From positions 1-59,326 of the forward strand of contig JBDLTF010000006.1 in the NCBI GenBank assembly GCA_039799225.1: DNA of 59,326 bases, written 5' to 3'. Both the position numbers and the translations under genes were made by a program. The notes under the pieces were generated by a model. It was given only the letters and a program-made list of their open reading frames with translations, did no database searches and had not been told where the DNA came from. Of the stretch, positions 7,187 through 57,073 are shown in pieces (the first letter of the stretch is position 1; each line of letters opens with the position of its first letter). The DNA comes from Candidatus Parcubacteria bacterium (GTDB lineage Bacteria > Patescibacteriota > Minisyncoccia > Phycocordibacterales > PALSA-1337).

Positions 7187-9205
7187 CTAGTCTATATCGA
7201 GCACGTTCTTGAGCACTTCTTCAGGAACTTCCTTGGGCTTCTCTTTCTCATCAGCCACCGGAGCAGCTTTCACTTCTTTTTCTATCTGAGCCTTTGATTC
7301 GGTGAACACAATCTTCGGCAATGGTTTCAATTTCTCAGCAGATTTGAGCGCAGGAATAGCGATTGGAGCGTCAGAGGATGGGGCAGTTTTTGGCGTTTCG
7401 CTTTTCTTCGCCATCGCGGCGGCAAGCGCATTCTTGAGACCACTTACATTCTCTTTCGTCTGAGCCTTGGGATCATGGCGTGGAGACTGAGGCTTGGACT
7501 CGAGCGTAGACAGAGAGACTGGTTTTGTCGCTTCTGGTGCAGGCTTCGGAGTAAGAGGTTTAGATTCTGAAGCAACAACTTTCACAGGCTCTATCGCCTT
7601 AGGTTTCGCCATTGCAGTAGCGAGTGCATCTTTGAGGCTTGGATGACCTTCAAGTTCAGGCTTAGGAACTGCAGTTGCGAGAGGTTGCTTCTTCACTGGA
7701 GCTACAGGAACAGGTGCTGACGCAATAACTGGCTTAGGTGCAGGAGCTGGCGCTTGAGCAACTGGAACAACAGGTTTAGGAACGGGAGTAACTGGTGCGA
7801 CTACAACTGGTTGGATCTTAGGCATTGCAGCAAGCGAAGCAGAACCAACCTTAGGAGATGGTTTCTCACGATCACCAAGCGCTTCAATTTTCTTCATCGC
7901 TGGTGTCGAGTCATGGAACTTCGAAATCTCCACTTCGACTTCAGCCTTTGGCTTCGAGAACTGCTCGCGAGATGCAGCAAGAATCTCCTCGACGTATGAC
8001 GTGTCAGGATGCGCTATTGGTGGCAAAGTTGTAGCTGAGAATGGTGACGAGCTCAAACCATCAATCATGAGTTTGAGATAGATCTGCGCGAAACCGAGGT
8101 TGACCAAGTCTTCAAGCACAAAGACTGGTGCAAATTCTTTTTCGAATACTTCACCATCAGTCGCACCAACACGGAATGCAATCATGGTTCCCACGTTACC
8201 AAATACCGCAGGACGGACGATCTCATCCATCTGTTCAATGTACTGGTGCGCAATTGTAAGATTGAGTTTGTATTTTCGAGCTTCAGAGAGAATATCTGCA
8301 AATGATGCGTTGGCGAAGTTCTGGAACTCGTCCACGAAAAGGTAGAAGTTCGGAAGCATCTTCATGACGCGATCTGGCACATCTGCGCGTGACATAGCTG
8401 CGAGATATATTTTGGTAACAAGGAGACCCCCGAGAAGTTTCATATTCTCATCACCAATCCTTCCCTTTGAAAGGTTAATGATAATAATCTTGCGCTCATC
8501 CATCGCCTTACGGAAATCGAATGAGGACTTGGACTGACCGATCATATTCCTGATGAGTGGATTGGCGGTGAACTGACCAACTTTGTTCTGAATAGCAGGA
8601 ACTGCCTCAGCCGCCATACGTTCGGTATAGTTGGCAAACTCTTTGACCCAGAATGACTTCACCGAAGGATCAGTGACATGCGAAATGATTTCATTCCTGT
8701 ACGCCTTGTCGGAGAGCATACGGTTCACACCGAGGAGTGTAGTGTCTGGCGCTTCGAGAAGTGCGAGGAGTGTGTTGGTGAGGATGTATTCCATACGCGC
8801 AGACCATGCATCTTCCCAAATCTTCTTGAAAGTACTCATGAGTCCACCGACGACGAGATGTCTCTTCTCTGGACTAACACTCTCGAGCACGTTGAAGGAG
8901 ATTGGATTTTCGAGGTCAAAAGGCGCAATAACAATCACGTCACGAATACGATCCTTGGGCACATATTCGAGCATGAGATCAGCTGTCTTTCCGTGCGGAT
9001 CGATGAAGCACATGCCTTCGCCGCCCTGGATGTCCTGGACGGCCATGTTCTCGAGAAGAGTAGACTTTCCCATACCCGTCTTTCCGATGACGTACACGTG
9101 GCGTGTACGGTCTTTGGCCTTGATGCCAAACTTGAGGCGCTTGTTACGAGCGTCAGTTTCGCCGAAATAGGTTATGCGATTCTCATCGGTGGATACAGGA
9201 GCCAT
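7187..9205 (-). CDS. P-loop ATPase of the TraD/TraG/VirD4 (type IV coupling protein-like) family with a Pro/Ala/Lys-rich C-terminal tail
   Basis: Walker A VIGKTGMGKST, Walker B LFVDEFQNF, and KYKLNLTIAHQ. I saw no TM segment. Start preferred at 9205 (MAPVST) because TGgTACAAT lies at 9216-9224; an alternative ATG is at 9214. Confidence 0.7.
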   Translation of the reverse strand: MAPVSTDENRITYFGETDARNKRLKFGIKAKDRTRHVYVIGKTGMGKSTLLENMAVQDIQGGEGMCFIDPHGKTADLMLEYVPKDRIRDVIVIAPFDLENPISFNVLESVSPEKRHLVVGGLMSTFKKIWEDAWSARMEYILTNTLLALLEAPDTTLLGVNRMLSDKAYRNEIISHVTDPSVKSFWVKEFANYTERMAAEAVPAIQNKVGQFTANPLIRNMIGQSKSSFDFRKAMDERKIIIINLSKGRIGDENMKLLGGLLVTKIYLAAMSRADVPDRVMKMLPNFYLFVDEFQNFANASFADILSEARKYKLNLTIAHQYIEQMDEIVRPAVFGNVGTMIAFRVGATDGEVFEKEFAPVFVLEDLVNLGFAQIYLKLMIDGLSSSPFSATTLPPIAHPDTSYVEEILAASREQFSKPKAEVEVEISKFHDSTPAMKKIEALGDREKPSPKVGSASLAAMPKIQPVVVAPVTPVPKPVVPVAQAPAPAPKPVIASAPVPVAPVKKQPLATAVPKPELEGHPSLKDALATAMAKPKAIEPVKVVASESKPLTPKPAPEATKPVSLSTLESKPQSPRHDPKAQTKENVSGLKNALAAAMAKKSETPKTAPSSDAPIAIPALKSAEKLKPLPKIVFTESKAQIEKEVKAAPVADEKEKPKEVPEEVLKNVLDID

Positions 9206-9337
9206 ATATACCATTATTGTACCATAATAAAACCCCGCCGCTCGATGAGCGACGGGGTAGACTTTTAACTGGTCTCCTTAGTCCAGCCTGGGGTTATTAT
9301 TAATCAACACATTCCACTTTGTTCTGACCGGAGCGCA

Positions 9338-9690: not shown

Positions 9691-10959
9691 TTACTTGGGG
9701 AGAAGTGCGTTGAGGTCATAAATACTGCCTGCATTCCAGAGCATCCAGCTGTCGAGACTCGAGTCATATGTCGCATCAATCTGCTTGCGAACCATCTCTG
9801 GCGTATAGACCGCACCGAGGTCGAATGCTTGCAACCAGGGGCGCAATTTATTCTTGTCATGAGCCTTCTTGGTATAGAGCTGGGGTGTCGTCGATGCGAT
9901 AGGTTCCTCCCCGAGCCATGAGATGCGTGTCGTGGTCGCTTCCGCCTTGGCGATACCTGCAATAAGAGCTGCCGATATCACTTCGTACGGATACTGAGCT
10001 GGCTTGGCATATCCATTGAAACCTTTTCCATAGTGTGACGGATAAATCATCGGTGAGACATAGTCGAAATATTCGAGACCATACTCGAGAATCTGTCCGA
10101 TGCCGAGATCACCTTCAGCAGCAGTCGTGAGTCCGAAAAGATCGACTGATGTTGGTATGCCCGTGCCTTCGAACTTACTATGCACATAGCTGAAGAAATC
10201 TTTCATGACTTCGTGACGTGGCCTACCTCCTGCCCAGGTGTATGAAATATTCTCGAGATTTCCATCTGAGGGGAATCTAATGTAATCAAAATTGAGTTCA
10301 TCGAAACCAACTTCATATGATCCATTACCGATAGCAACAAGATAATCCCATACCGGTGTTGCTGCAGCATCGAGCCACTTCACACCCTTATAGTCTTGCC
10401 ATATGTTGCCCTCCTTGGTTTTCACTGCCCATTCTGGATGGATATTGATGAGATACGAGTCTTGGAATGAAGAAATGCGACCGATGACGTACACATTTTT
10501 GCTGTGCAATTCTTCAATGAACTCTTTGATATCTGGTATTCTCTTTTCTATAGCACCTGTCTCTATGATTGCTGGATCATCCATCTCGAAGCTGATGCGA
10601 CCAGTGTAGTCCTTCACATCAATCACCACTGAATTAATTTCTGTAGTATCAACAAGCTCGAAGAGGTGCTTCCTAAATTTCTGACTACCTGCGGCCCAGC
10701 TCGTCATATAGACTGCCTTAACTTGATCAGGTGTAGAAATATGAGTCGCCTTCCATACAGGAGTTGTAGAAGCCACTTCAGCAGGAATTACGGCGGCAGC
10801 GAGAGCAGCGTCGACGGGAGACTGGAGCGTAGCTGAATAATCAATACGTCCCAGAGGAATGAACCATGCGAGAGCAAAGATGGCGACGACGATGAGAAAT
10901 GCTGTCGTGATTACGATTGCAGAGCGAGTGGATCCGTACTCACGCCAGAGCCCGATCAT
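9691..10959 (-). CDS. membrane-anchored putative glycoside hydrolase, TIM-barrel type (COG1306/DUF4015-like)
   Basis: N-terminal TM helix. VKAVYMTSWAAGS...INSVVIDVKDYTGRISF is the pattern I associate with this family. Confidence 0.55.
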   Translation of the reverse strand: MIGLWREYGSTRSAIVITTAFLIVVAIFALAWFIPLGRIDYSATLQSPVDAALAAAVIPAEVASTTPVWKATHISTPDQVKAVYMTSWAAGSQKFRKHLFELVDTTEINSVVIDVKDYTGRISFEMDDPAIIETGAIEKRIPDIKEFIEELHSKNVYVIGRISSFQDSYLINIHPEWAVKTKEGNIWQDYKGVKWLDAAATPVWDYLVAIGNGSYEVGFDELNFDYIRFPSDGNLENISYTWAGGRPRHEVMKDFFSYVHSKFEGTGIPTSVDLFGLTTAAEGDLGIGQILEYGLEYFDYVSPMIYPSHYGKGFNGYAKPAQYPYEVISAALIAGIAKAEATTTRISWLGEEPIASTTPQLYTKKAHDKNKLRPWLQAFDLGAVYTPEMVRKQIDATYDSSLDSWMLWNAGSIYDLNALLPK

Positions 10960-11234: not shown

Positions 11235-11705
11235 ATGATAATGCCAGAAAACCTTAACAAAGGAATAGCTATGAGTAATCCGTTTACGACTGTTCCTCTC
11301 ATTGAGGAGCATTTCGAGCAATACAAAACAAAGGAAGGACTCTTCGTTGCACGAGTCTTCCAACGACCGCATTTCTGGTATGTCGGTGTTCTCAGATGTA
11401 GCACACTCAACCATGTAGATATCGTCGCTATCGAGTTCAAAAGCTCTATACGTTTCGAACGAGATGGCAAATGCGATCCATGGCTTGCATGTGACACCCT
11501 AATCAAACCCTCAATCGACCGTGCTGTACCCGGGACAAAAGACAAACAGCGCCGATTCGTACTCTCGGATGCAGCCAGGATTGTCCACTCAACTCTTACT
11601 GAAAACAGTGGAGTACTCGGTATTCAATATCTAGACGGATTCGCTCATCTCTCTTATCGTCCGCCTGATATCCAGTTCGTGCAAAAAATTCTTGGGATTC
11701 CATAA
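11235..11705 (+). CDS. hypothetical protein (156 aa)
   Basis: ORF with ATG at 11235 (alternatives at 11241 and 11271), followed by a hairpin terminator. Confidence 0.5.
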   Translation: MIMPENLNKGIAMSNPFTTVPLIEEHFEQYKTKEGLFVARVFQRPHFWYVGVLRCSTLNHVDIVAIEFKSSIRFERDGKCDPWLACDTLIKPSIDRAVPGTKDKQRRFVLSDAARIVHSTLTENSGVLGIQYLDGFAHLSYRPPDIQFVQKILGIP

Positions 11706-11707
11706 CA

Positions 11708-11740
11708 AGCCGCACATGTTCACATGCGCGGCTCTTTTGT
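11708..11740 (+). terminator. hairpin terminator
   Basis: AGCCGCACATG pairs with CATGCGCGGCT (one mismatch), followed by CTTTTGTT. Confidence 0.55.
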
Positions 11741-11745
11741 TGGAT

Positions 11746-13735: not shown

Positions 13736-14506
13736 ATGGACACGAAGACTCTTTCGCAAAGCGCTCTGTCCGTCATCGATCACTATCTTCATTTCAAGAT
13801 AGGTTCAGTATTCTGTTCTGTCCCTTATTTCAATAACAAAACCAAGCTTTCTCGCCTCGCCTTGCGCGTAAATGTTGGCAAAGGAAGTCCTGAAGATATT
13901 CTCGATGATGTCCAGTCACTCATAGTGAAGTCTCATGTTGCAGTCGATTCTCTTACCTCTGAATCACTCAAGAAAGTACTCGTCGATCAAAACATTGGCA
14001 TCGACTGCTCTGGTTTCGCGTACTATATATTAAATGCAGAATCCCTCGAAACAAAAAAAACTCCGTTAAAGAAACGTCTCACATTTGTAAACTGTCGTAC
14101 CATTCTCGACAAAATCCGCTGCACACTCCGCCCTGTCGAGAACTGTGACGTTGTAACACTTGCCGATGATAGAAACAGCTCAGTCATCTCAATCAAAGAT
14201 GTTCTTCCTGGTGATTTCATCACTATGCTTAACAATCACGCTGAGGGTGAACGAGATCACATCCTCATGATCCACCATGTCGAGCATCGCGAACAGACAC
14301 CAACGAAGCTCCACTATTCTCATGCGGCAGCATATCCAGAAGATGGTATCTACGGCACCGGTATCAAACAAGGTGAAATCGACATCACAAACATGGATAA
14401 GGCTATCAACGAACAGACATGGATTGAGGGCGGCAACCAAGGTGATTCTAATCGTATCTATTTGAGAGCGCAGAAATCGAAAACAGAACTGAGGAGATTG
14501 AATTAG
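13736..14506 (+). CDS. cytoplasmic NlpC/P60-like (papain-fold) cysteine peptidase/amidase homologue
   Basis: GIDCSGFAYYIL (catalytic Cys context DCSGF) and GDFITML...DHILMIHHVEH (His context). No signal peptide. The ATG lies 2 nt after the ATP-grasp stop. Confidence 0.5.
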   Translation: MDTKTLSQSALSVIDHYLHFKIGSVFCSVPYFNNKTKLSRLALRVNVGKGSPEDILDDVQSLIVKSHVAVDSLTSESLKKVLVDQNIGIDCSGFAYYILNAESLETKKTPLKKRLTFVNCRTILDKIRCTLRPVENCDVVTLADDRNSSVISIKDVLPGDFITMLNNHAEGERDHILMIHHVEHREQTPTKLHYSHAAAYPEDGIYGTGIKQGEIDITNMDKAINEQTWIEGGNQGDSNRIYLRAQKSKTELRRLN

Positions 14507-14513
14507 TTTCAGA

Positions 14514-14631
14514 CCCACGGCAGGAGCAGCATGTGTGCTCTGCACGTGTCATGTTTCGTACTGAAAATTAAAGCTTATTTAAGCACCTAAGCATGACACG
14601 TGCAGAGCACACATGTCGCTCCTGCCGTGGG
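14514..14631. repeat. giant hairpin element A (40-nt inverted arms, 38-nt loop)
   Basis: Arm 14514-14553 is the reverse complement of 14592-14631, except for one A.C mismatch and one G.T wobble. It shares the AGCATGTGT and TCTGC cores with element B at 20395-20514. Confidence 0.9.
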
Positions 14632-14675
14632 GGTTTTGATTGAAAATAGGCCATTTTCATGGTATCGTAGTCCCC

Positions 14676-15803
14676 ATGATAACTTTCCTGGAAGGAACCG
14701 CAGATCTGGCCTATATCATGGGTTTTGCGCTTGTTGGCGCCGCTTTTGCCTATCTCTGGGCACCCCTCCTCACCAGAATCCTCTACAAATTCAACATCAT
14801 CAAGGGAGCAAAGACTGAGCTCGCAGCTCTCGGTTCCCATGCTTATAAAGCAAATACCCCAGTCATGGGAGGCCTCCTCATCGTCGTCACCGTAAGCATC
14901 CTCACTATTCTCTTCAACTGGAACCGTTCATTCACCTATGTCCCTATCGGCGTCATGCTCATCTCTGCCCTCCTCGGTGGTATCGACGACCTCATGAGCG
15001 TCTATGGTACCGAGCGCCGCTCACGCAAGATGGGTCATATCATGAACCTCATCCGCATCCACAATGACTGGAAAATGCGCCTCTGGTATACCATCACACT
15101 TCCGTGGAGTGCATTCAAGCGTCTCTCAGTCTGGTTCGGTTCACACACAAGGAAAGGTGTCTTCGTCCACGAGAAGCTCATCCTCCAATTCATCGCTGGT
15201 GTCGTCACTGCATGGTGGGTCTATACCAAGCTCGGTCCTGCATGGCACTATCTCTATATTCCTTTTGGCCCTGGCATCGATCTCTCATGGCTCGTTATCC
15301 CTATCGTCATCTTCATCGTGATGTTCACTGCCAACGCAGTTAATATCGCTGATGGTATGGATGGTCTCGCAGGTGGCATGCTTGTCACTACATTCAGTGC
15401 ACTCACTATCCTCTCGTGGATCAACGGTTTCGGTGAGGTCGCCATCCTCAATGCCACCACTACCGGAGCACTCGTTGCTTATACCTATTTCAATATCAAA
15501 CCTGCTCGATTCATGATGGGAGACGTTGGATCCCTCGGTGTCGGAGCTCTTCTCGCCGTCAACGCCATGGCCATCGGAGAGACCGTTGCTCTCTTCTTCC
15601 TCGGCTTCATGTTCTATATCGAAGCACTCTCTGTTGTCATTCAGGTTATTTCCAAATACACTCTCGGTCGCCGCGTCTTCCGCATGGCACCACTCCACCA
15701 TCACTTCGAACTCAAGGGTTGGAGCGAGGAGAAGACTGTGATGCGCTTCTGGGTCATCCATTTCATGTTCGTCATCTTCGGCTTCTGGCTCGCGCTTCAC
15801 TAA
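14676..15803 (+). CDS. mraY: phospho-N-acetylmuramoyl-pentapeptide transferase
   Basis: TPVMGGLLIV, NAVNIADGMDGLAGG and PLHHHFELKGW motifs. The ATG at 14676 is preferred over the TTG at 14640, which abuts the hairpin. Confidence 0.9.
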   Translation: MITFLEGTADLAYIMGFALVGAAFAYLWAPLLTRILYKFNIIKGAKTELAALGSHAYKANTPVMGGLLIVVTVSILTILFNWNRSFTYVPIGVMLISALLGGIDDLMSVYGTERRSRKMGHIMNLIRIHNDWKMRLWYTITLPWSAFKRLSVWFGSHTRKGVFVHEKLILQFIAGVVTAWWVYTKLGPAWHYLYIPFGPGIDLSWLVIPIVIFIVMFTANAVNIADGMDGLAGGMLVTTFSALTILSWINGFGEVAILNATTTGALVAYTYFNIKPARFMMGDVGSLGVGALLAVNAMAIGETVALFFLGFMFYIEALSVVIQVISKYTLGRRVFRMAPLHHHFELKGWSEEKTVMRFWVIHFMFVIFGFWLALH

Positions 15804-16460
15804 ATGAACTACCTCCACTGGGATGAACAAGTCATCACCGATTTTTCGGAGAAAAACATCTCTGATATGTATTCTCGCGGCTACGTCTTCACTCGCATAG
15901 GCAAAGGTGCCATGCATCAGACTCGTTCGGTACGCATCGACCTCTCTGCATTCGAACCTTCGAGTGAGAACAGACGCATTCTCAAGAAGATTGAACCTGT
16001 TACCCTTTCCATCAAAACACTTCCTTTTGCTGACTATGATTTCAAGCTCGGCAAACTCGCGAAGGATTTCTATGACACGAAGTTTGGCCCTGGCATCATG
16101 AGCGCAGTGAAGGTCAAAGAGATGTTGACTGACGGCACAAAAAGTAATTTCAATACTCTGCTCGCATACGCAGGCACCGATCCTCTCGGTTACTGCATTG
16201 CGTATACAAATGCTGACATGCTGCATTACTCCTATCCATTCTATGACTTGAATGTATCTCCGAAAGATATGGGTCTCGGCATGATGACGCTCGCTATAGA
16301 ACACGCCAAGAATGCCGGTCTCAAATACATCTATCTCGGCTCACTTCAGCGTCCAACGGATACCTACAAACTCCAATTCAAAGGCCTTGAATGGTTCGAT
16401 GGATCTACCTGGTCTTCTGACCTCGAAAAGGTACGTGAAATCCTCTCTACGGAGAAATAG
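15804..16460 (+). CDS. arginyl/leucyl-tRNA--protein transferase (ATE/Bpt)-like protein
   Basis: The N-terminal region YSRGYVFTRIGKGAMHQTRSVRIDLSAFEPSSENRRILKK parallels ATE_N but without its Cys residues. The C-terminal YIYLGSLQRPTDTYKLQFKGLEWF parallels the YLGYW...YK..F motif of ATE_C. The ATG directly abuts the mraY TAA. Confidence 0.55.
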   Translation: MNYLHWDEQVITDFSEKNISDMYSRGYVFTRIGKGAMHQTRSVRIDLSAFEPSSENRRILKKIEPVTLSIKTLPFADYDFKLGKLAKDFYDTKFGPGIMSAVKVKEMLTDGTKSNFNTLLAYAGTDPLGYCIAYTNADMLHYSYPFYDLNVSPKDMGLGMMTLAIEHAKNAGLKYIYLGSLQRPTDTYKLQFKGLEWFDGSTWSSDLEKVREILSTEK

Positions 16461-17714: not shown

Positions 17715-17748
17715 TCCCTCACTGCGACAACGCGGTGAGGGATTTTTT
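17715..17748 (+). terminator. intrinsic terminator
   Basis: TCCCTCAC pairs with GTGAGGGA, followed by TTTTTT (17743-17748). Confidence 0.75.
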
Positions 17749-19457: not shown

Positions 19458-20390
19458 ATGGTACCCGAAAAAAGGTACTATGACAACATAGATTTTCGCA
19501 TATATTCAATGCCTACCCCCTTCGAATCATACCCCAAATTAGCGGCAAAAATAGGCCTCCCTGCCCTCTATTTCAAGCGAGAAGACCTCCATCCCTATGG
19601 GTCACATAAGGGACGCTCTATACCGCCTATGATCGACCACTACTATGCGCAGGGCGACCGTCGCTTCGTCATATCGTCTTCAGGTAATGCTGCTCTCGCC
19701 GCAGTACTCCATATCGTGAAGCTCACTGATGCATCTCTCGATGTTCTCGTTGGCACCCATATCTCTGAGAAGAAGTTCGACAAGATTCGCTCGGCAATAC
19801 CAGATCCTGTTACAAGAGAGCGTATCCGCATCCTCAAGAAAGAACGTCCTCTTCAAGCACTTATGCAATCAACGCAAGAAGGTATGCGTAGTCTCCGCCA
19901 GTCGACTGACGATATCGCTCTCGAAGGATATGAATCTCTCGCCGAAGAATTAATCGCGAGCTCGAAGAAGGATGCTATTGGTGCAGTCTTCATCGGCACT
20001 TCTTCTGGCACCACAGCTCAAGCTCTTGCGGCATATTTTTCCAAGAATGCATCTCCTATCCAAGTTCACATAGTTCAAACATCTTCCTGTCACCCAATGG
20101 CCGAAGTCTTCGAAGCATATGACGGTCATGATGAACTCTCAACTGCTGACGCTATCGTTGATCAGGTAGCACAACGCAAAGCGAAGCTCATTCCCCTTAT
20201 CGAATCAACTGGCGGCACCGGATGGATTGCTACCAATGACGACATTTCTGCCGCACAAGAATTCACCCGCGAACAAACAGGTCTCGAGATCTCAACCAAT
20301 AGCGCGCTCTCCGTCGCCGGAGCCATGAAAGCAGCTTATACTGGTCACGAAATTGACGGTGCAGTAGTGTGTATGATTTGTGGTGACTAA
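19458..20390 (+). CDS. PLP-dependent enzyme, fold type II (Trp-synthase-beta / Cys-synthase / Thr-synthase superfamily)
   Basis: LYFKREDLHPYGSHKGRS (PLP-lysine context) and VISSSGNAALA. An alternative start is at 19509 (MPTPF). Confidence 0.7.
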   Translation: MVPEKRYYDNIDFRIYSMPTPFESYPKLAAKIGLPALYFKREDLHPYGSHKGRSIPPMIDHYYAQGDRRFVISSSGNAALAAVLHIVKLTDASLDVLVGTHISEKKFDKIRSAIPDPVTRERIRILKKERPLQALMQSTQEGMRSLRQSTDDIALEGYESLAEELIASSKKDAIGAVFIGTSSGTTAQALAAYFSKNASPIQVHIVQTSSCHPMAEVFEAYDGHDELSTADAIVDQVAQRKAKLIPLIESTGGTGWIATNDDISAAQEFTREQTGLEISTNSALSVAGAMKAAYTGHEIDGAVVCMICGD

Positions 20391-20394
20391 AGAA

Positions 20395-20514
20395 CCCCGC
20401 AAGGCGCACAGCATGTGTATTTCTGCTGTGGCTTCGTTGTATTTGTACACTACACTTTAGCGAACCGTTCTGCGAAGCCACAGCAGAAATACACATGCTG
20501 TGCGCCTTGCGGGG
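20395..20514. repeat. giant hairpin element B (42-nt perfect inverted arms, 36-nt loop)
   Basis: 20395-20436 is the exact reverse complement of 20473-20514. It lies between convergent genes and is related to element A. Confidence 0.9.
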
Positions 20515-20527
20515 AATTTAAATTTCC

Positions 20528-21877
20528 CTACAATCCCCTCACGATACGCACGAATTTCTCGCCACGCTCTTTCTTGGATCCGTCGACACCTCCCGCGCCG
20601 AAACCTGGACTAAACAACACTTTATCTCCTTTCTGAGCACTCTCTGCGGCCAACAGAACCGCTTCTTCAAGACTAGGAACCACTTTGACTGTAGCTCCTT
20701 CGATACCCTGAATAGCTGTGCGCTCTTTCATACTGCCACTTCCGGGAAGAGAGATGACTGTGTGCGCATACTTCGGTATCTCCGCATACAATGTGCGGTA
20801 GTCATGTCCGAGATCTGCTCCTCCGATAATGAGTACCGTATCGCGACCTTTCGATATTGCTGACAGACCTGCAAGGACTGCATCGGGAGTCATCGACATT
20901 GTATCGTTGTAGAATTCAACAAATTTCACTTTTTTGACCAATTCAAGCCTGCCGCGAAGCGCTTTCCATGAACCGAGGATACGATGCGCCGCGTCATCAT
21001 CCAGCTTGAAAAGTCTCCCTGCCTGGAGTGCGAGAGCTGCGTTGGCACGGTCGTGCGAACCCCTGCCGAGGAAACCCCACTCGAGAGGAACGATTGCCGG
21101 CTTTGTACGGAGCATCTTCGCACGAGGCTGTACTGCACCGGCGCGTGCGATATCAACAATCTCATCTGATGCTACCAAGAAGTTGTTGTAGGTCTGATAT
21201 GCCAAGATCTCGAATGGCGAGTCTTTGTATGCCTGCTTCCCTGGAACACCGGTGAATATCGCGACATGGGGACTGATGCGCATAGCATGGAGCTCACCGA
21301 GAAGGATGTCGGGTATGTGCAGAAGCACAATATCTCCACTCTTGGCCTTCTTGAGATGCGCGAGCGCACCATCGGATGACTCAGGATCTATCGTGAAGAG
21401 TGACTGTCCTCCATGCTCCTTGCAGACATGCTCGAGCATTGGACCAAGGATAGATACAATCGTCGATTTGCCACACGGACCCATAACGCCCACCAGAGTT
21501 ACTGGAGGTGCGAGCTTGAAGAAAAGTGTCTCAGAATATTCGATAGCAATCTTCTTCTTATTATTCTCATCTGCATACTGATTGTGCGCATGTATACCCT
21601 TCAAGAATGAAGAGCTGCGGGGATACTCATGCGAGAGGATAATCATATCCATATCGAGCAAATCTTCAGACGGGATGGACCCGCACACATAGTTGGCGAG
21701 GCCAACCGAACGCAAGAAGAGCAGCTCGCTCTTGAGTCGGGCTTCACTCTTGAGGTCATAGATGGAGACCCATGCCCCTGCTTTGATTAGGTACTTCGCA
21801 TCCTCAATCATCTCGCCGTGCGCGCCGAGGCCGACAAGCGCCACGCGTTTGCCTTTGAAATAATCTTTGGATGACAT
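20528..21877 (-). CDS. murD: UDP-N-acetylmuramoylalanine--D-glutamate ligase-like Mur ligase
   Basis: N-terminal Rossmann motif RVALVGLGAHG and P-loop GVMGPCGKST. The ATG at 21877 (MSSKDYF) is preferred over the GTG at 21892. Confidence 0.75.
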   Translation of the reverse strand: MSSKDYFKGKRVALVGLGAHGEMIEDAKYLIKAGAWVSIYDLKSEARLKSELLFLRSVGLANYVCGSIPSEDLLDMDMIILSHEYPRSSSFLKGIHAHNQYADENNKKKIAIEYSETLFFKLAPPVTLVGVMGPCGKSTIVSILGPMLEHVCKEHGGQSLFTIDPESSDGALAHLKKAKSGDIVLLHIPDILLGELHAMRISPHVAIFTGVPGKQAYKDSPFEILAYQTYNNFLVASDEIVDIARAGAVQPRAKMLRTKPAIVPLEWGFLGRGSHDRANAALALQAGRLFKLDDDAAHRILGSWKALRGRLELVKKVKFVEFYNDTMSMTPDAVLAGLSAISKGRDTVLIIGGADLGHDYRTLYAEIPKYAHTVISLPGSGSMKERTAIQGIEGATVKVVPSLEEAVLLAAESAQKGDKVLFSPGFGAGGVDGSKKERGEKFVRIVRGL

Positions 21878-21901
21878 GCGCACAGTGTACACATGAAAGC
21901 A

Positions 21902-23010: not shown

Positions 23011-23042
23011 AAAAATAAAACAAGGAAATAAATCCTTGTTTT
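23011..23042 (-). terminator. terminator downstream of pyk
   Basis: AAAACAAGGA pairs with TCCTTGTTTT, with a T-run following on the minus strand. Confidence 0.7.
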
Positions 23043-23065
23043 ATTCTATCTATTTGAAATAAAGC

Positions 23066-26842: not shown

Positions 26843-28384
<1,542 letters not shown>

Positions 28385-28693
28385 TATAAGCGAACGGAAC
28401 AAAATAGAAAGCGCTACGCTCCCTTACTTTATATTTCACTTACTGTCTGATCTAGCTCTCACAACTGATATTGAATCTATATCGTTGCTTGAATTATTAT
28501 TTGGAATATTTTGGTATTTGCACTTCACCGTGCAGGTGCCCCGCTAAGGACAGTCTGCATGGCTTCTTCCTCCACCCCTAGTTAAGGGGGTTTCGAAGAA
28601 TATTTAAATACATTCTCAATGCTCTATATTATTTCCTATAGAGCTTTTATGCGACTTTCAAAGTACCGACCCTGTTTTCAGGGCGTAGGGTCT

Positions 28694-37594: not shown

Positions 37595-37629
37595 CAAAAA
37601 AACACCGCCTACAACGGCAGTGTTTTTTA
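37595..37629. terminator. terminator ending the 23S-5S unit
   Basis: ACACCGCC pairs with GGCAGTGT (one mismatch), flanked by A7 and T6, about 12 nt beyond the 5S 3' end. Confidence 0.7.
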
Positions 37630-37641
37630 TCGAATCCTCTG

Positions 37642-37751
37642 TTCTGGCGACAAGCTACTTTCGCCCCGTAGGACTATCATCGCCGCAACTATGTTTCACT
37701 TCCGTGTTCGGAATGGGAACGGGTGTTGCCATAGCGCCAAATCACCAGAAC
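37642..37751 (-). rRNA. rrf: 5S rRNA
   Basis: Minus-strand CCGAACACGGAAGUGAAAC and GCGAUGAUAGU...GGGGCGAAAGUAGC align with bacterial 5S. The ends pair (CUGGUGA.../...UCGCCAGA), and an extended flanking stem spans 37632-37647 and 37745-37760. Confidence 0.9.
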
Positions 37752-37829
37752 ACAGGATTCGATCCTGCTCACACATATTAAGTATCATAAAAATGATGTA
37801 TCTATCGTATCACAACAAGCGACGTTCAG

Positions 37830-41194
<3,365 letters not shown>

Positions 41195-55978: not shown

Positions 55979-57073
55979 ATGTCCACAAAGAAAAGCAAAG
56001 GAAAAGCGGCCGCATCCGAGGAAGTCGCTTCACCTCTAGAAGAAACTACTGAAGAGTCCGCTGAATCTACCGCATCCAAAGCCGCTGAGAAGAAAACTTC
56101 CGCCGGTATTATGGATGCTCTCGATGCCATCCGCGGCAAATTTGGCGATGACGCCATCATGAAGCTCGGTGACAAGCCCAAGGTTAATGTCGGTGCCATC
56201 CCTACCGGATCACTTGGTCTCGATTGGGCGCTCGGTATCGGCGGTATGCCCCGCGGACGCATCATCGAAATATTCGGTCCAGAATCTTCCGGTAAGACCA
56301 CTCTCGCCCTCCACGTCGTCGCTGAGGCCCAGAAGCTTGGTGGTGTCTGCGCCTACATCGATGCAGAACATGCTATGGACCCTGAATACGCTGGTAAGCT
56401 CGGCGTGAAGCTCAGTGACCTCCTCATCTCTCAGCCTGACACTGGTGAACAAGCTCTCGAGATCGTCGACAGTCTCATTCGTACCAACAAGATGGATGTT
56501 ATCGTTATCGACTCTGTCGCCGCACTCACTCCCCGTGCAGAAATCGAAGGTGATATGGGAGCACACCATGTCGGAGCTCAAGCTCGCCTCATGTCGCAAG
56601 CCCTCCGCAAATTGACCGCCATCGTCGCTAAGTCCAAGACTGTCGTCATCTTCATCAACCAGATCCGTATGCAGATCGGCGTCATGTTCGGCAATCCTGA
56701 AACTACCCCAGGAGGTAAGGCTCTCAAATTCTACGCCTCTGTCCGTCTCGACATCCGCCGTATCGCCCAGATCAAGAAGGGTGAAGAGATTATGGGAGGT
56801 CGTTGTCGTGTGAAGGTCGTCAAGAATAAGGTCGCTGCCCCATTCAAGCAAACTGAGTTCGATCTCATGTACAACGAAGGTATTTCCCAAGAAGGTGAAA
56901 TTATCGCGCTTGGCGAGAAGTATGAACTTCTCCAGAAGTCAGGTTCTTCATATTCCTACGGCGAAGTGAAGCTCGGTCGCGGCTATGATGCAACAAGACA
57001 ATTCCTCAAAGAGAATCCAAAGGTGAAGAGTGAAATCTTGAAAGCAATCCGTGGGAAGTTGAATGCTCAGTAG
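55979..57073 (+). CDS. recA: recombinase RecA (with an N-terminal acidic extension of about 30 aa)
   Basis: [33 protein letters not shown] and [22 protein letters not shown]. Confidence 0.95.

Follow-up and report, generated by a model that had tools for sequence, protein, structure and literature searches.

The contig JBDLTF010000006.1 of a Candidatus Parcubacteria bacterium (assembly GCA_039799225.1), whose 59,326 nucleotides were analysed here as a whole and are called the window below, contains two giant intergenic hairpins, element B (20395-20514) and element A (14514-14631), and no other. Judged from their sequences and those of related loci, both belong to a class of elements that is common in the Paceibacteria/Taylorbacteria lineage and that combines essentially perfect arms of 28-50 bp with an asymmetric core of 20-190 nt located behind stop codons. 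The explanation that we prefer, with a probability of roughly 0.5, is that B is a palindromic element similar to repetitive extragenic palindromes (REPs), their hairpin-forming doublets (REPINs) or miniature inverted-repeat transposable elements (MITEs), which resides in a terminator slot, has its arms kept perfect by exchange at the DNA level and probably acts as a strong 3'-end hairpin. The conversion between arms, the mobility and the terminator role are the parts of this explanation that we infer. Element B and its neighbours are as follows:

5' arm of B, 20395..20436: 42 nt, exact reverse complement of 20473-20514, outer end CCCCGC
Loop or core of B, 20437..20472: 36 nt, asymmetric
3' arm of B, 20473..20514: 42 nt, followed by AATTTAAATTT on the + strand
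Gene of a pyridoxal phosphate (PLP)-dependent enzyme, 19458..20390, + strand: Pfam PALP, 2.3e-31
Mur ligase (murD-like) gene, 20528..21892, - strand, convergent: Pfam Mur_ligase_C

A preliminary description of this DNA had reported perfect 42-nt arms around a 36-nt loop between the convergent PLP-enzyme gene and murD, which was confirmed by an inverted-repeat search. The two arms are 100% reverse-complementary up to their fully paired ends (CCCCGCAAGG/CCTTGCGGGG), and the 5' arm holds a 10-nt alternating purine/pyrimidine run, GCATGTGTAT. With a span of 120 bases, the element fills the gap between the two stop codons, beginning 4 nt after that of the PLP-enzyme gene and ending 13 nt from that of the murD-like gene; on the - strand it is followed downstream by TTCTTTAG. 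The chance expectation for a perfect 42-nt inverted repeat within 200 nt is about 1e-18 per 59 kb. Folded as RNA, B reaches -93.9 kcal/mol on the + strand and -95.2 kcal/mol on the - strand, compared with an average of about -36 for shuffled sequences (z = -15 and -17.6, respectively; none of 200 shuffles was equally good), and folded as DNA it reaches -61.1 kcal/mol (z = -15.4).

To compare this junction among relatives, syntenic loci were collected via the flanking proteins from metagenome-assembled genomes (MAGs) labelled Paceibacterota, Taylorbacteria or Parcubacteria (L numbers below denote loci), in which murD-like orthologues of 55-88% identity lie in conserved synteny. A MurD scan of metagenomes gave nine loci, among them L135 and L136. 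Giant hairpins at the murD junction include:

L122: MurD 87% identical to that of the window; arms 43 nt, loop 36 nt
L123/L137: MurD 80% identical; perfect arms of 37 nt, loop 36 nt
L135: MurD 88% identical; arms 51 nt, loop 25 nt
L127: MurD 65% identical; perfect arms of 31 nt around a 102-nt core

When B, L122, L123, L135 and element A were aligned, 24 of the 35 stem pairs had changed on both sides with pairing kept, every such double change being Watson-Crick, and 94.6% of all cells were paired. None of 500 shuffles reached this level of covariation and slid partner columns yielded 3-6 pairs, so that the covariation test proposed in the preliminary description is positive. Between the window and L122, four-fold degenerate sites in murD agree at only 44%, i.e. 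are saturated, while the arms are 81% identical, with eight differences mirrored in both arms, and the loops agree at all 36 positions but are inverted relative to murD and the PLP-enzyme gene. The L123 loop shares 28 of 36 positions with that of B; it is oriented as the minus strand of the window and opposite to the loop of L122. Identity in the flanks of B and L122 is 0.83-0.90 in 60-nt windows, which is ordinary, and with no high-identity tract present, a recent recombination tract was rejected as the source of their likeness. Given saturated four-fold sites, ordinary flanks and much better preserved arms and loop, B is an old element under constraint, above all in its loop. Protein-coding potential was also rejected, because open reading frames (ORFs) through B are not kept in frame between the window and L122.

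The arms carry a signature that leans towards the DNA level. Among 1735 arm pairs from 46 giant hairpins, 95 were non-Watson-Crick, comprising 22 G·T and 25 A·C; at co-directional sites, read on the sense strand, G·T numbered 15 and A·C 12. Selection on RNA would tolerate G·U but not A·C, so the absence of a G·U excess over A·C, considered along with the flipped loops and the perfection of the arms, makes an exchange between the two arms, by recombination or template switching, the likelier origin of their covariation. The segment in B is found in both orientations between genomes (B versus L122), and a second flip separates L170 from L171: these loci are 96% identical over 3.3 kb and have identical 37-nt arms, and the 194-nt element is 99.5% identical as the reverse complement only. 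The default largest k of SPAdes is 55; since these contigs look SPAdes-style and such a k exceeds the arm length, the orientation of the L170/L171 element is probably supported by reads. The exchange between arms could take the form of gene conversion, template switching or reciprocal recombination. The preliminary description had offered either selection on the hairpin or propagation of palindromic units. Watson-Crick-only changes, the similar numbers of G·T and A·C and the inverted loop favour the latter, DNA-level alternative, although the mechanism suggested here, recombination or template switching from arm to arm, was in neither.

An assembly duplication or inversion, which the preliminary description had named as something that would undo its claim, is not supported. 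It is true that short-read contigs end or have gaps at such hairpins, which would fit a chimeric inverted duplication made by the assembler. In an independent Logan assembly, the contig (L121) stops 30 nt into the left arm of B, at 20424, as a k=31 graph is bound to do on meeting a 42-nt inverted repeat; another contig (L132) ends at such a hairpin, and a third has a run of N there (L129:3220-3317). On the other hand, B is internal to its contig and flanked by syntenic genes, A is identical in the Logan assembly, and diverged orthologous hairpins with mirrored substitutions are present in MAGs of unrelated studies. An assembly artefact is thus effectively refuted. Because short-read assemblies break or gap exactly at giant hairpins, the abundance of these elements in MAGs is probably underestimated, and either orientation of a core may be assembled.

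To define the class, we searched 1.34 Mb from 90 related loci for hairpins that had arms of 24 nt or longer and pairing of 90% or more. This survey yielded 57 giant hairpins, with a peak of arm length at 28-48 nt. The possibility raised in the preliminary description that only two copies exist therefore holds for the window alone; in the lineage the class is abundant. The 46 clean hairpins were all intergenic and began 0-13 nt past the upstream stop codon; 27 lay between co-directional and 15 between convergent genes, and none between divergent genes, where about six would be expected from the background junctions (833 co-directional, 185 convergent and 168 divergent), although the loci are not independent samples. 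Since similar hairpins occur at many 3'-end junctions of relatives, the peptidoglycan neighbourhood mentioned in the preliminary description is incidental. Occupancy was examined at two junctions:

murD-PLP junction: giant hairpin in 14 of 78 loci; median gap 27.5 nt without and 158.5 nt with a hairpin
mraY-NlpC junction (the site of A): giant hairpin in 8 of 54 loci; median gap 44 nt without and 210 nt with a hairpin

These medians indicate that the entire hairpin is added DNA, about 130-165 nt each. The gap at the murD-PLP junction spans -4 to 351 nt continuously in 73 loci, of which 20 have essentially no spacer and 23 a strongly folding sequence of 75 nt or more. The murD genes of L135 and L136 are 99.6% identical, and only L135 has a giant hairpin. 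At the corresponding position L136 has an 11-bp stem (TAGAACCCCAC/GTGGGGTTCTA) with a 14-nt loop (L136:11376-11411), and L135 retains the base of this stem, enclosing a 105-nt palindrome in place of the 14-nt loop (L135:11376-11502). Both this difference and the range of gap lengths argue for discrete elements that may be gained, lost or replaced as alleles, and for a hairpin that would not be essential at this junction. On the PLP side, the flanks of L135 and L136 are locally more diverged, a sign that recombination may have replaced the allele.

The possibility that arms had been copied from neighbouring sequence was rejected, as no second copy of an arm was found in the loci and the empty gaps (about 27 nt) are too short; outward copying of flanks accounts for a few bases at most, such as the stop-codon overlap in L127 and L135. 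Several features of the arms were noted in passing. Alternating purine/pyrimidine runs of at least nine occur in 12 of 42 arms, compared with 5.5% of random windows. The arms are also rich in nested palindromic hexamers (GCATGTGTAT, GTGCAC, CACGTG), including positions 20404-20420 and 14528-14552 of the window and the arms of L123, L124, L135, L127 and others, and many have a CATTT(T/C) tract 10-20 nt from the core.

Element A has the same architecture and lies in front of mraY:

5' arm of A, 14514..14556: 43 nt, homologous to the arms of B, L135 and L123
Loop of A, 14557..14588: 32 nt
3' arm of A, 14589..14631: 43 nt with three mismatches including a TC/CT swap, followed by GGTTTTGATTG
NlpC/P60-like gene, 13736..14506, + strand: weak Pfam hit, synteny with relatives; stop codon 7 nt before A
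mraY (glycosyl transferase family 4), 14640..15803, + strand: downstream of A; an independent gene call starts at 14676

The preliminary description regarded the two copies as related, as diverged at about a third of arm positions and as almost perfectly self-complementary, and all three statements held up. The arms of A are 93% complementary, compared with 100% in B. A global alignment of the A and B arms scored 8 against -6.9 +/- 3.8 for shuffles (p = 0.0002), at an identity of about 60-65%, i.e. about 35-40% of positions differ; an outer CCC and (C/A)AGG are common to both, and the 9-mer AGCATGTGT is found in A and B and nowhere else. The arm of A is also homologous to those of L135 (p < 0.0002) and L123 (p = 0.0004), and is closer to the arm of the L135 murD-junction hairpin than to that of B. 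When a covariance model of B, A and three orthologues was run against the window, it recovered only A and B, even with filters off. Thus, A is a paralogue and true relative of B, although their loops are unrelated (p = 0.37). Directly behind A we noticed a sigma-70-like match (14640-14668; TTGAAA, 17 nt, TG-TATCGT), 8 nt before the ATG at 14676, from which a leaderless mraY transcript could begin right behind the hairpin.

Arms and cores seem to be separate modules. Several relatives have two or three hairpins per genome whose cores are 97-98% identical between unrelated outer arms (L127, L153, L240/L243), and among the arms of 60 elements nothing was common beyond orthologues, i.e. arms are locus-specific. 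In the window the pattern is reversed, with related arms and unrelated loops in A and B. These comparisons indicate that arm and core modules evolve semi-independently, for which conversion of cores between copies or exchange of modules are possible causes.

Many cores in relatives fall into one family (family 1). Its core begins with TGCGGAACTC and ends with CTCARACAGTCCTC (boxes TGCGGAACTC ... TCARACAGTCCTC), measures about 30-190 nt with a variable interior, and forms an internal hairpin in which an A·A mismatch is conserved and the internal loop is asymmetric; the sequence of its closing stem is free. It was found at 120 loci or more, and is multi-copy in MAGs of Aminicenantes, Desulfobacterota, Clostridia, Myxococcota, Gammaproteobacteria and several groups of the Candidate Phyla Radiation (CPR). 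Relative to genes it is oriented at random, with 25 sense and 23 antisense copies, and about half of the copies have additional locus-specific flanking inverted repeats; head-to-tail tandems are present in L250, L234 and L299. It corresponds to no Rfam family and has no recurrent neighbour gene, its neighbours being housekeeping genes only. No match was found in plasmid and phage collections, apart from three short-form hits in IMG/VR. Starting from the hairpins of this study, the analysis thus arrived at a conserved core motif that many phyla carry in multiple copies and that Rfam lacks. Representative sites of this core and of another repeat are:

Family 1 core copies: L127:5275-5376 and 9873-9974; L170:440-559; L149:1499-1601; L284:1331-1465; loci L212-L331
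Sites of the repeat GTCATTCCCGCGAAGGCGGGAATC: L141:653-840; L168:12724-12813; L183:11443-11554; L191:9796-9998

Neither box of family 1 is present in A or B. That the B loop might be a reduced family 1 core was rejected, its similarity to the minimal core having p = 0.11; for the A loop the values were p = 0.04 with the minimal core and 0.005 with the longer form of L284. We also noticed a second core family, GGATATTTTTCTGCTGAAAAATTCC..GCTCGCGCCAGTCGCGCTCGC, at L132:5837-5953 and 8444-8532, L153:11349-11465 and 15977-16105, and L157:8687-8798, whose copies are 98% identical within one genome and lie between unrelated perfect arms. In four CPR MAGs that are unrelated to one another, long inverted repeats have arms formed by GTCATTCCCGCGAAGGCGGGAATC, a repeat that is itself a small hairpin.

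Several other explanations deserve consideration. An element acting in RNA, such as a bidirectional terminator, an RNase III site or a small RNA with a functional 36-nt loop, would turn the arm changes into compensatory substitutions. This is suggested by the convergent genes, which transcribe both strands into B, by the extreme folding stability and the formally strong covariation, by a loop conserved above the arms with both above neutral, and by the location of hairpins right behind stop codons and their absence from the promoter regions of divergent genes; at a convergent junction, where both strands have to fold, selection could even favour pairs of the Watson-Crick type only. However, a G·U excess is missing even at co-directional sites with a single sense strand (15 vs 12), the orientation of the loop relative to the genes is not fixed, neither termination nor RNase III requires perfect stems of 40-50 bp, no Rfam match exists, and the hairpin is missing at the murD-PLP junction in 20 of 73 relatives. 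We therefore consider such an element unlikely. If the covariation indeed stems from concerted evolution of DNA and not from selection on RNA, it would call for caution in covariation-based discovery of RNAs.

Two flips among close relatives, independent of each other and with unchanged arms, could also indicate an invertible switch, in which recombination by RecA or a dedicated enzyme turns the core over and toggles an orientation-dependent signal beside cell-envelope genes. Arms of 28-50 bp reach or exceed the minimum length for homologous recombination, RecA is encoded in the window (55979-57073), and the cores are asymmetric and conserved. We nevertheless regard a switch as very unlikely, as A and B contain no promoter-like match, the window has no invertase gene, the arms share no common recombinase-binding motif, nothing obvious could be toggled between convergent 3' ends, and any long inverted repeat would be expected to flip as a side effect. 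Little credence is likewise given to a DNA hairpin or cruciform recognised by a protein, i.e. a site of recombination, nicking or replication (an HUH target or attC-like) with the loop exposed as single-stranded DNA. It would account for the DNA-level signature of the arms, the independence of orientation, and the many hairpins of relatives that enclose the TGCGGAACTC ... TCARACAGTCCTC core, which is multi-copy in many phyla, has the A·A mismatch and asymmetric internal loop and is always closed by a stem of variable sequence. But the B loop is not significantly similar to that core, B lacks extrahelical bases and R-box motifs, and no candidate enzyme gene recurs near core elements or is present in the window. 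A broader version is quite unlikely as well: the giant hairpins would be the CPR form of undescribed, pan-bacterial, structure-specific DNA elements, each with a conserved asymmetric core (for example TGCGGAACTC ... CAGACAGTCCTC) and a free locus-specific stem, serviced by a trans-acting enzyme or by host recombination. Such machinery would even out differences between the arms and also turn the core over, so that recombination would drive a 'flip-flop' element that plays a part in regulation or in genome structure.

We thus return to the REP- or MITE-like palindrome in a terminator slot. Such an element would have entered as additional DNA and been passed on by vertical descent, with copies lost, gained or replaced by other alleles from time to time. 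Recombination or template switching between the arms would either erase a mutation that arises in one of them or transfer it to the other, so that the arms remain Watson-Crick perfect while their sequence drifts, and a reciprocal exchange between arms would invert the core. Purifying constraint would act on the loop and less strongly on the arms. The most likely role of the element would be that of a very strong 3'-end hairpin that works in both directions, terminating the convergent transcripts of the PLP-enzyme gene and murD or insulating them from each other. The stem base has the form CCC(C).../...GGG(G), with TTTT after A and, on the murD strand, TTCTTT after B. An ordinary hairpin in the window resembles the giant ones and was the best non-member match of the A/B covariance model (17.5 bits, E ~0.05), which hints that giant hairpins may be related to, or built on, ordinary terminators. 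Terminators of ordinary size in the window are:

Bidirectional terminator-like hairpin, 11699..11744, no strand assigned: between convergent genes; stem AACAAGCCGCACATGT resembles the outer arm of A, B and L123
Ordinary terminators: 9232-9258, 17715-17742, 23012-23047 and 11699-11744

A number of observations weigh against this explanation. The ORFs of the window include no recombinase, no reverse transcriptase and no transposase, the last of which the preliminary description had suggested looking for. No direct target-site duplication flanks B (...TAAAGAA on one side, AATTTAA... on the other) or A (...TTTCAGA and GGTTTTG...). With no more than two copies in 59 kb, and with arms that differ from locus to locus, it is by inference that we speak of mobility. 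A terminator at the murD-PLP junction is dispensable, as shown by the spacerless relatives; hairpin flanks in the class show no overall richness in T, and normal terminators are far smaller than a stem of 42 bp with a loop of 36 nt. A purely selfish palindrome with no function does not explain a loop and arms conserved above neutral. In addition, the flip of the loop rests on assemblies.

Apart from the hairpins, the window is ordinary chromosome, with envelope and peptidoglycan genes, SecD, FtsW, FtsK, RecA, rRNAs and two tRNAs. Between the 16S (26843-28387) and 23S (37834-41190) genes lie about 9.4 kb that contain protein-coding ORFs. The match to 23S covers 3357 nt against a model of 2925 nt and so includes an insertion of about 430 nt; no intron family was found there at Rfam thresholds. 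The 5S gene (37629-37763) is bracketed by a 22-nt inverted repeat, likely a processing stem. An ORF of 675 aa for a VirD4/TraG-like coupling ATPase (7187-9214) lies among the envelope genes and is followed by the canonical terminator at 9232-9258.

We finally compared the hairpins with known systems. The preliminary description had recognised no described repeat family, and this agrees with Rfam 15, which at gathering thresholds gave no match at A or B; in E-value mode, A and B matched only MIR837, mir-969 and MtlS, generic miRNA-precursor-like hits far below threshold. Searches of L127 and 18 other loci in these modes likewise gave nothing real. A two-seed pattern (AGCATGTGT N60-85 ACACATG) gave only chance matches in genome contigs, and no description was found in the literature on CPR hairpins, terminators, invertons and box sequences.

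Hairpin-forming MITEs include the Correia elements of Neisseria, the enterobacterial ERIC/IRU and the cyanobacterial Nezha. Like the giant hairpins, MITEs in general are non-coding insertions of 100-200 nt with inverted ends that form long hairpins, show presence/absence polymorphism among closely related strains and can supply terminators or processing sites. The giant hairpins differ in having perfect arms and no target-site duplication. They also seem to lack a terminal inverted repeat conserved across copies and a partner insertion sequence: A and B share the outer CCC and (C/A)AGG, but arms in relatives are unrelated, and the window has no insertion sequence. REPINs are REP doublets that form hairpins and are mobilised by RAYT transposases, and compensatory changes on both sides are common in them (Bertels and Rainey, 2011; PMC3116915). 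REPs, bacterial interspersed mosaic elements (BIMEs) and REPINs share with B an extragenic hairpin of about 100 nt with two inverted arms and a less conserved spacer, location at gene 3' ends with exclusion from promoters, compensatory changes and vertical persistence at orthologous sites (PMC3116915). However, REPIN arms contain an invariant 16-mer present tens to hundreds of times per genome, whereas the arms here are longer, perfect and locus-specific or diverged, it is the core and not the arms that is conserved in many relatives, and no RAYT is encoded among the ORFs of the window.

B resembles a bidirectional terminator in lying directly after both stop codons, in its GC-rich stem base and perhaps in a T-rich tail on at least one side. 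The stem is followed by TTCTTTAG on the strand of murD and by AATTTAAATTT on that of the PLP-enzyme gene, and T is not enriched in the flanks of the class. In contrast to the roughly 5-15 bp stem and 3-8 nt loop typical of terminators, B has a 42-bp stem and a 36-nt loop that is conserved, and relatives often have no hairpin at this junction; a terminator scan picked up only sub-hairpins of A. An inverton likewise has inverted repeats around a segment that occurs in both orientations, here between genomes, but no promoter-like match was present in 20395-20514 or 14514-14631 and no invertase or recombinase in the window. attC sites share the conserved structure with variable sequence and the position 3' of genes; unlike them, B has no R''/R' boxes (RYYYAAC / GTTRRRY), no extrahelical bases and no arrays, and no integrase is encoded in the window.

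Quasipalindrome correction and spacer inversion, via intramolecular template switching or recombination between inverted repeats, are processes known from the genetics of E. coli. They explain perfect Watson-Crick arms, mirrored substitutions and indels, and inversion of the spacer by no dedicated enzyme, but have been described at artificial or short natural quasipalindromes. To our knowledge, such correction has not been recognised as a mechanism that maintains lineage-wide elements of 100-200 nt.

CPR/Patescibacteria genomes are tiny and packed, yet up to a third of the relatives carry 100-300 nt of highly structured extra DNA at one junction, a gap in the annotation of these genomes that asks to be explained. 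Should these hairpins act as terminators or switches next to genes of the cell wall, few cis-regulatory elements would have been defined earlier in this uncultivated lineage. Palindromic intergenic repeat elements are a known kind; what appears to be new here are the very long and perfect arms of free sequence, the conserved asymmetric cores and the inversion of the loop, in a class of hairpins that seems to be previously undescribed in CPR/Paceibacteria.

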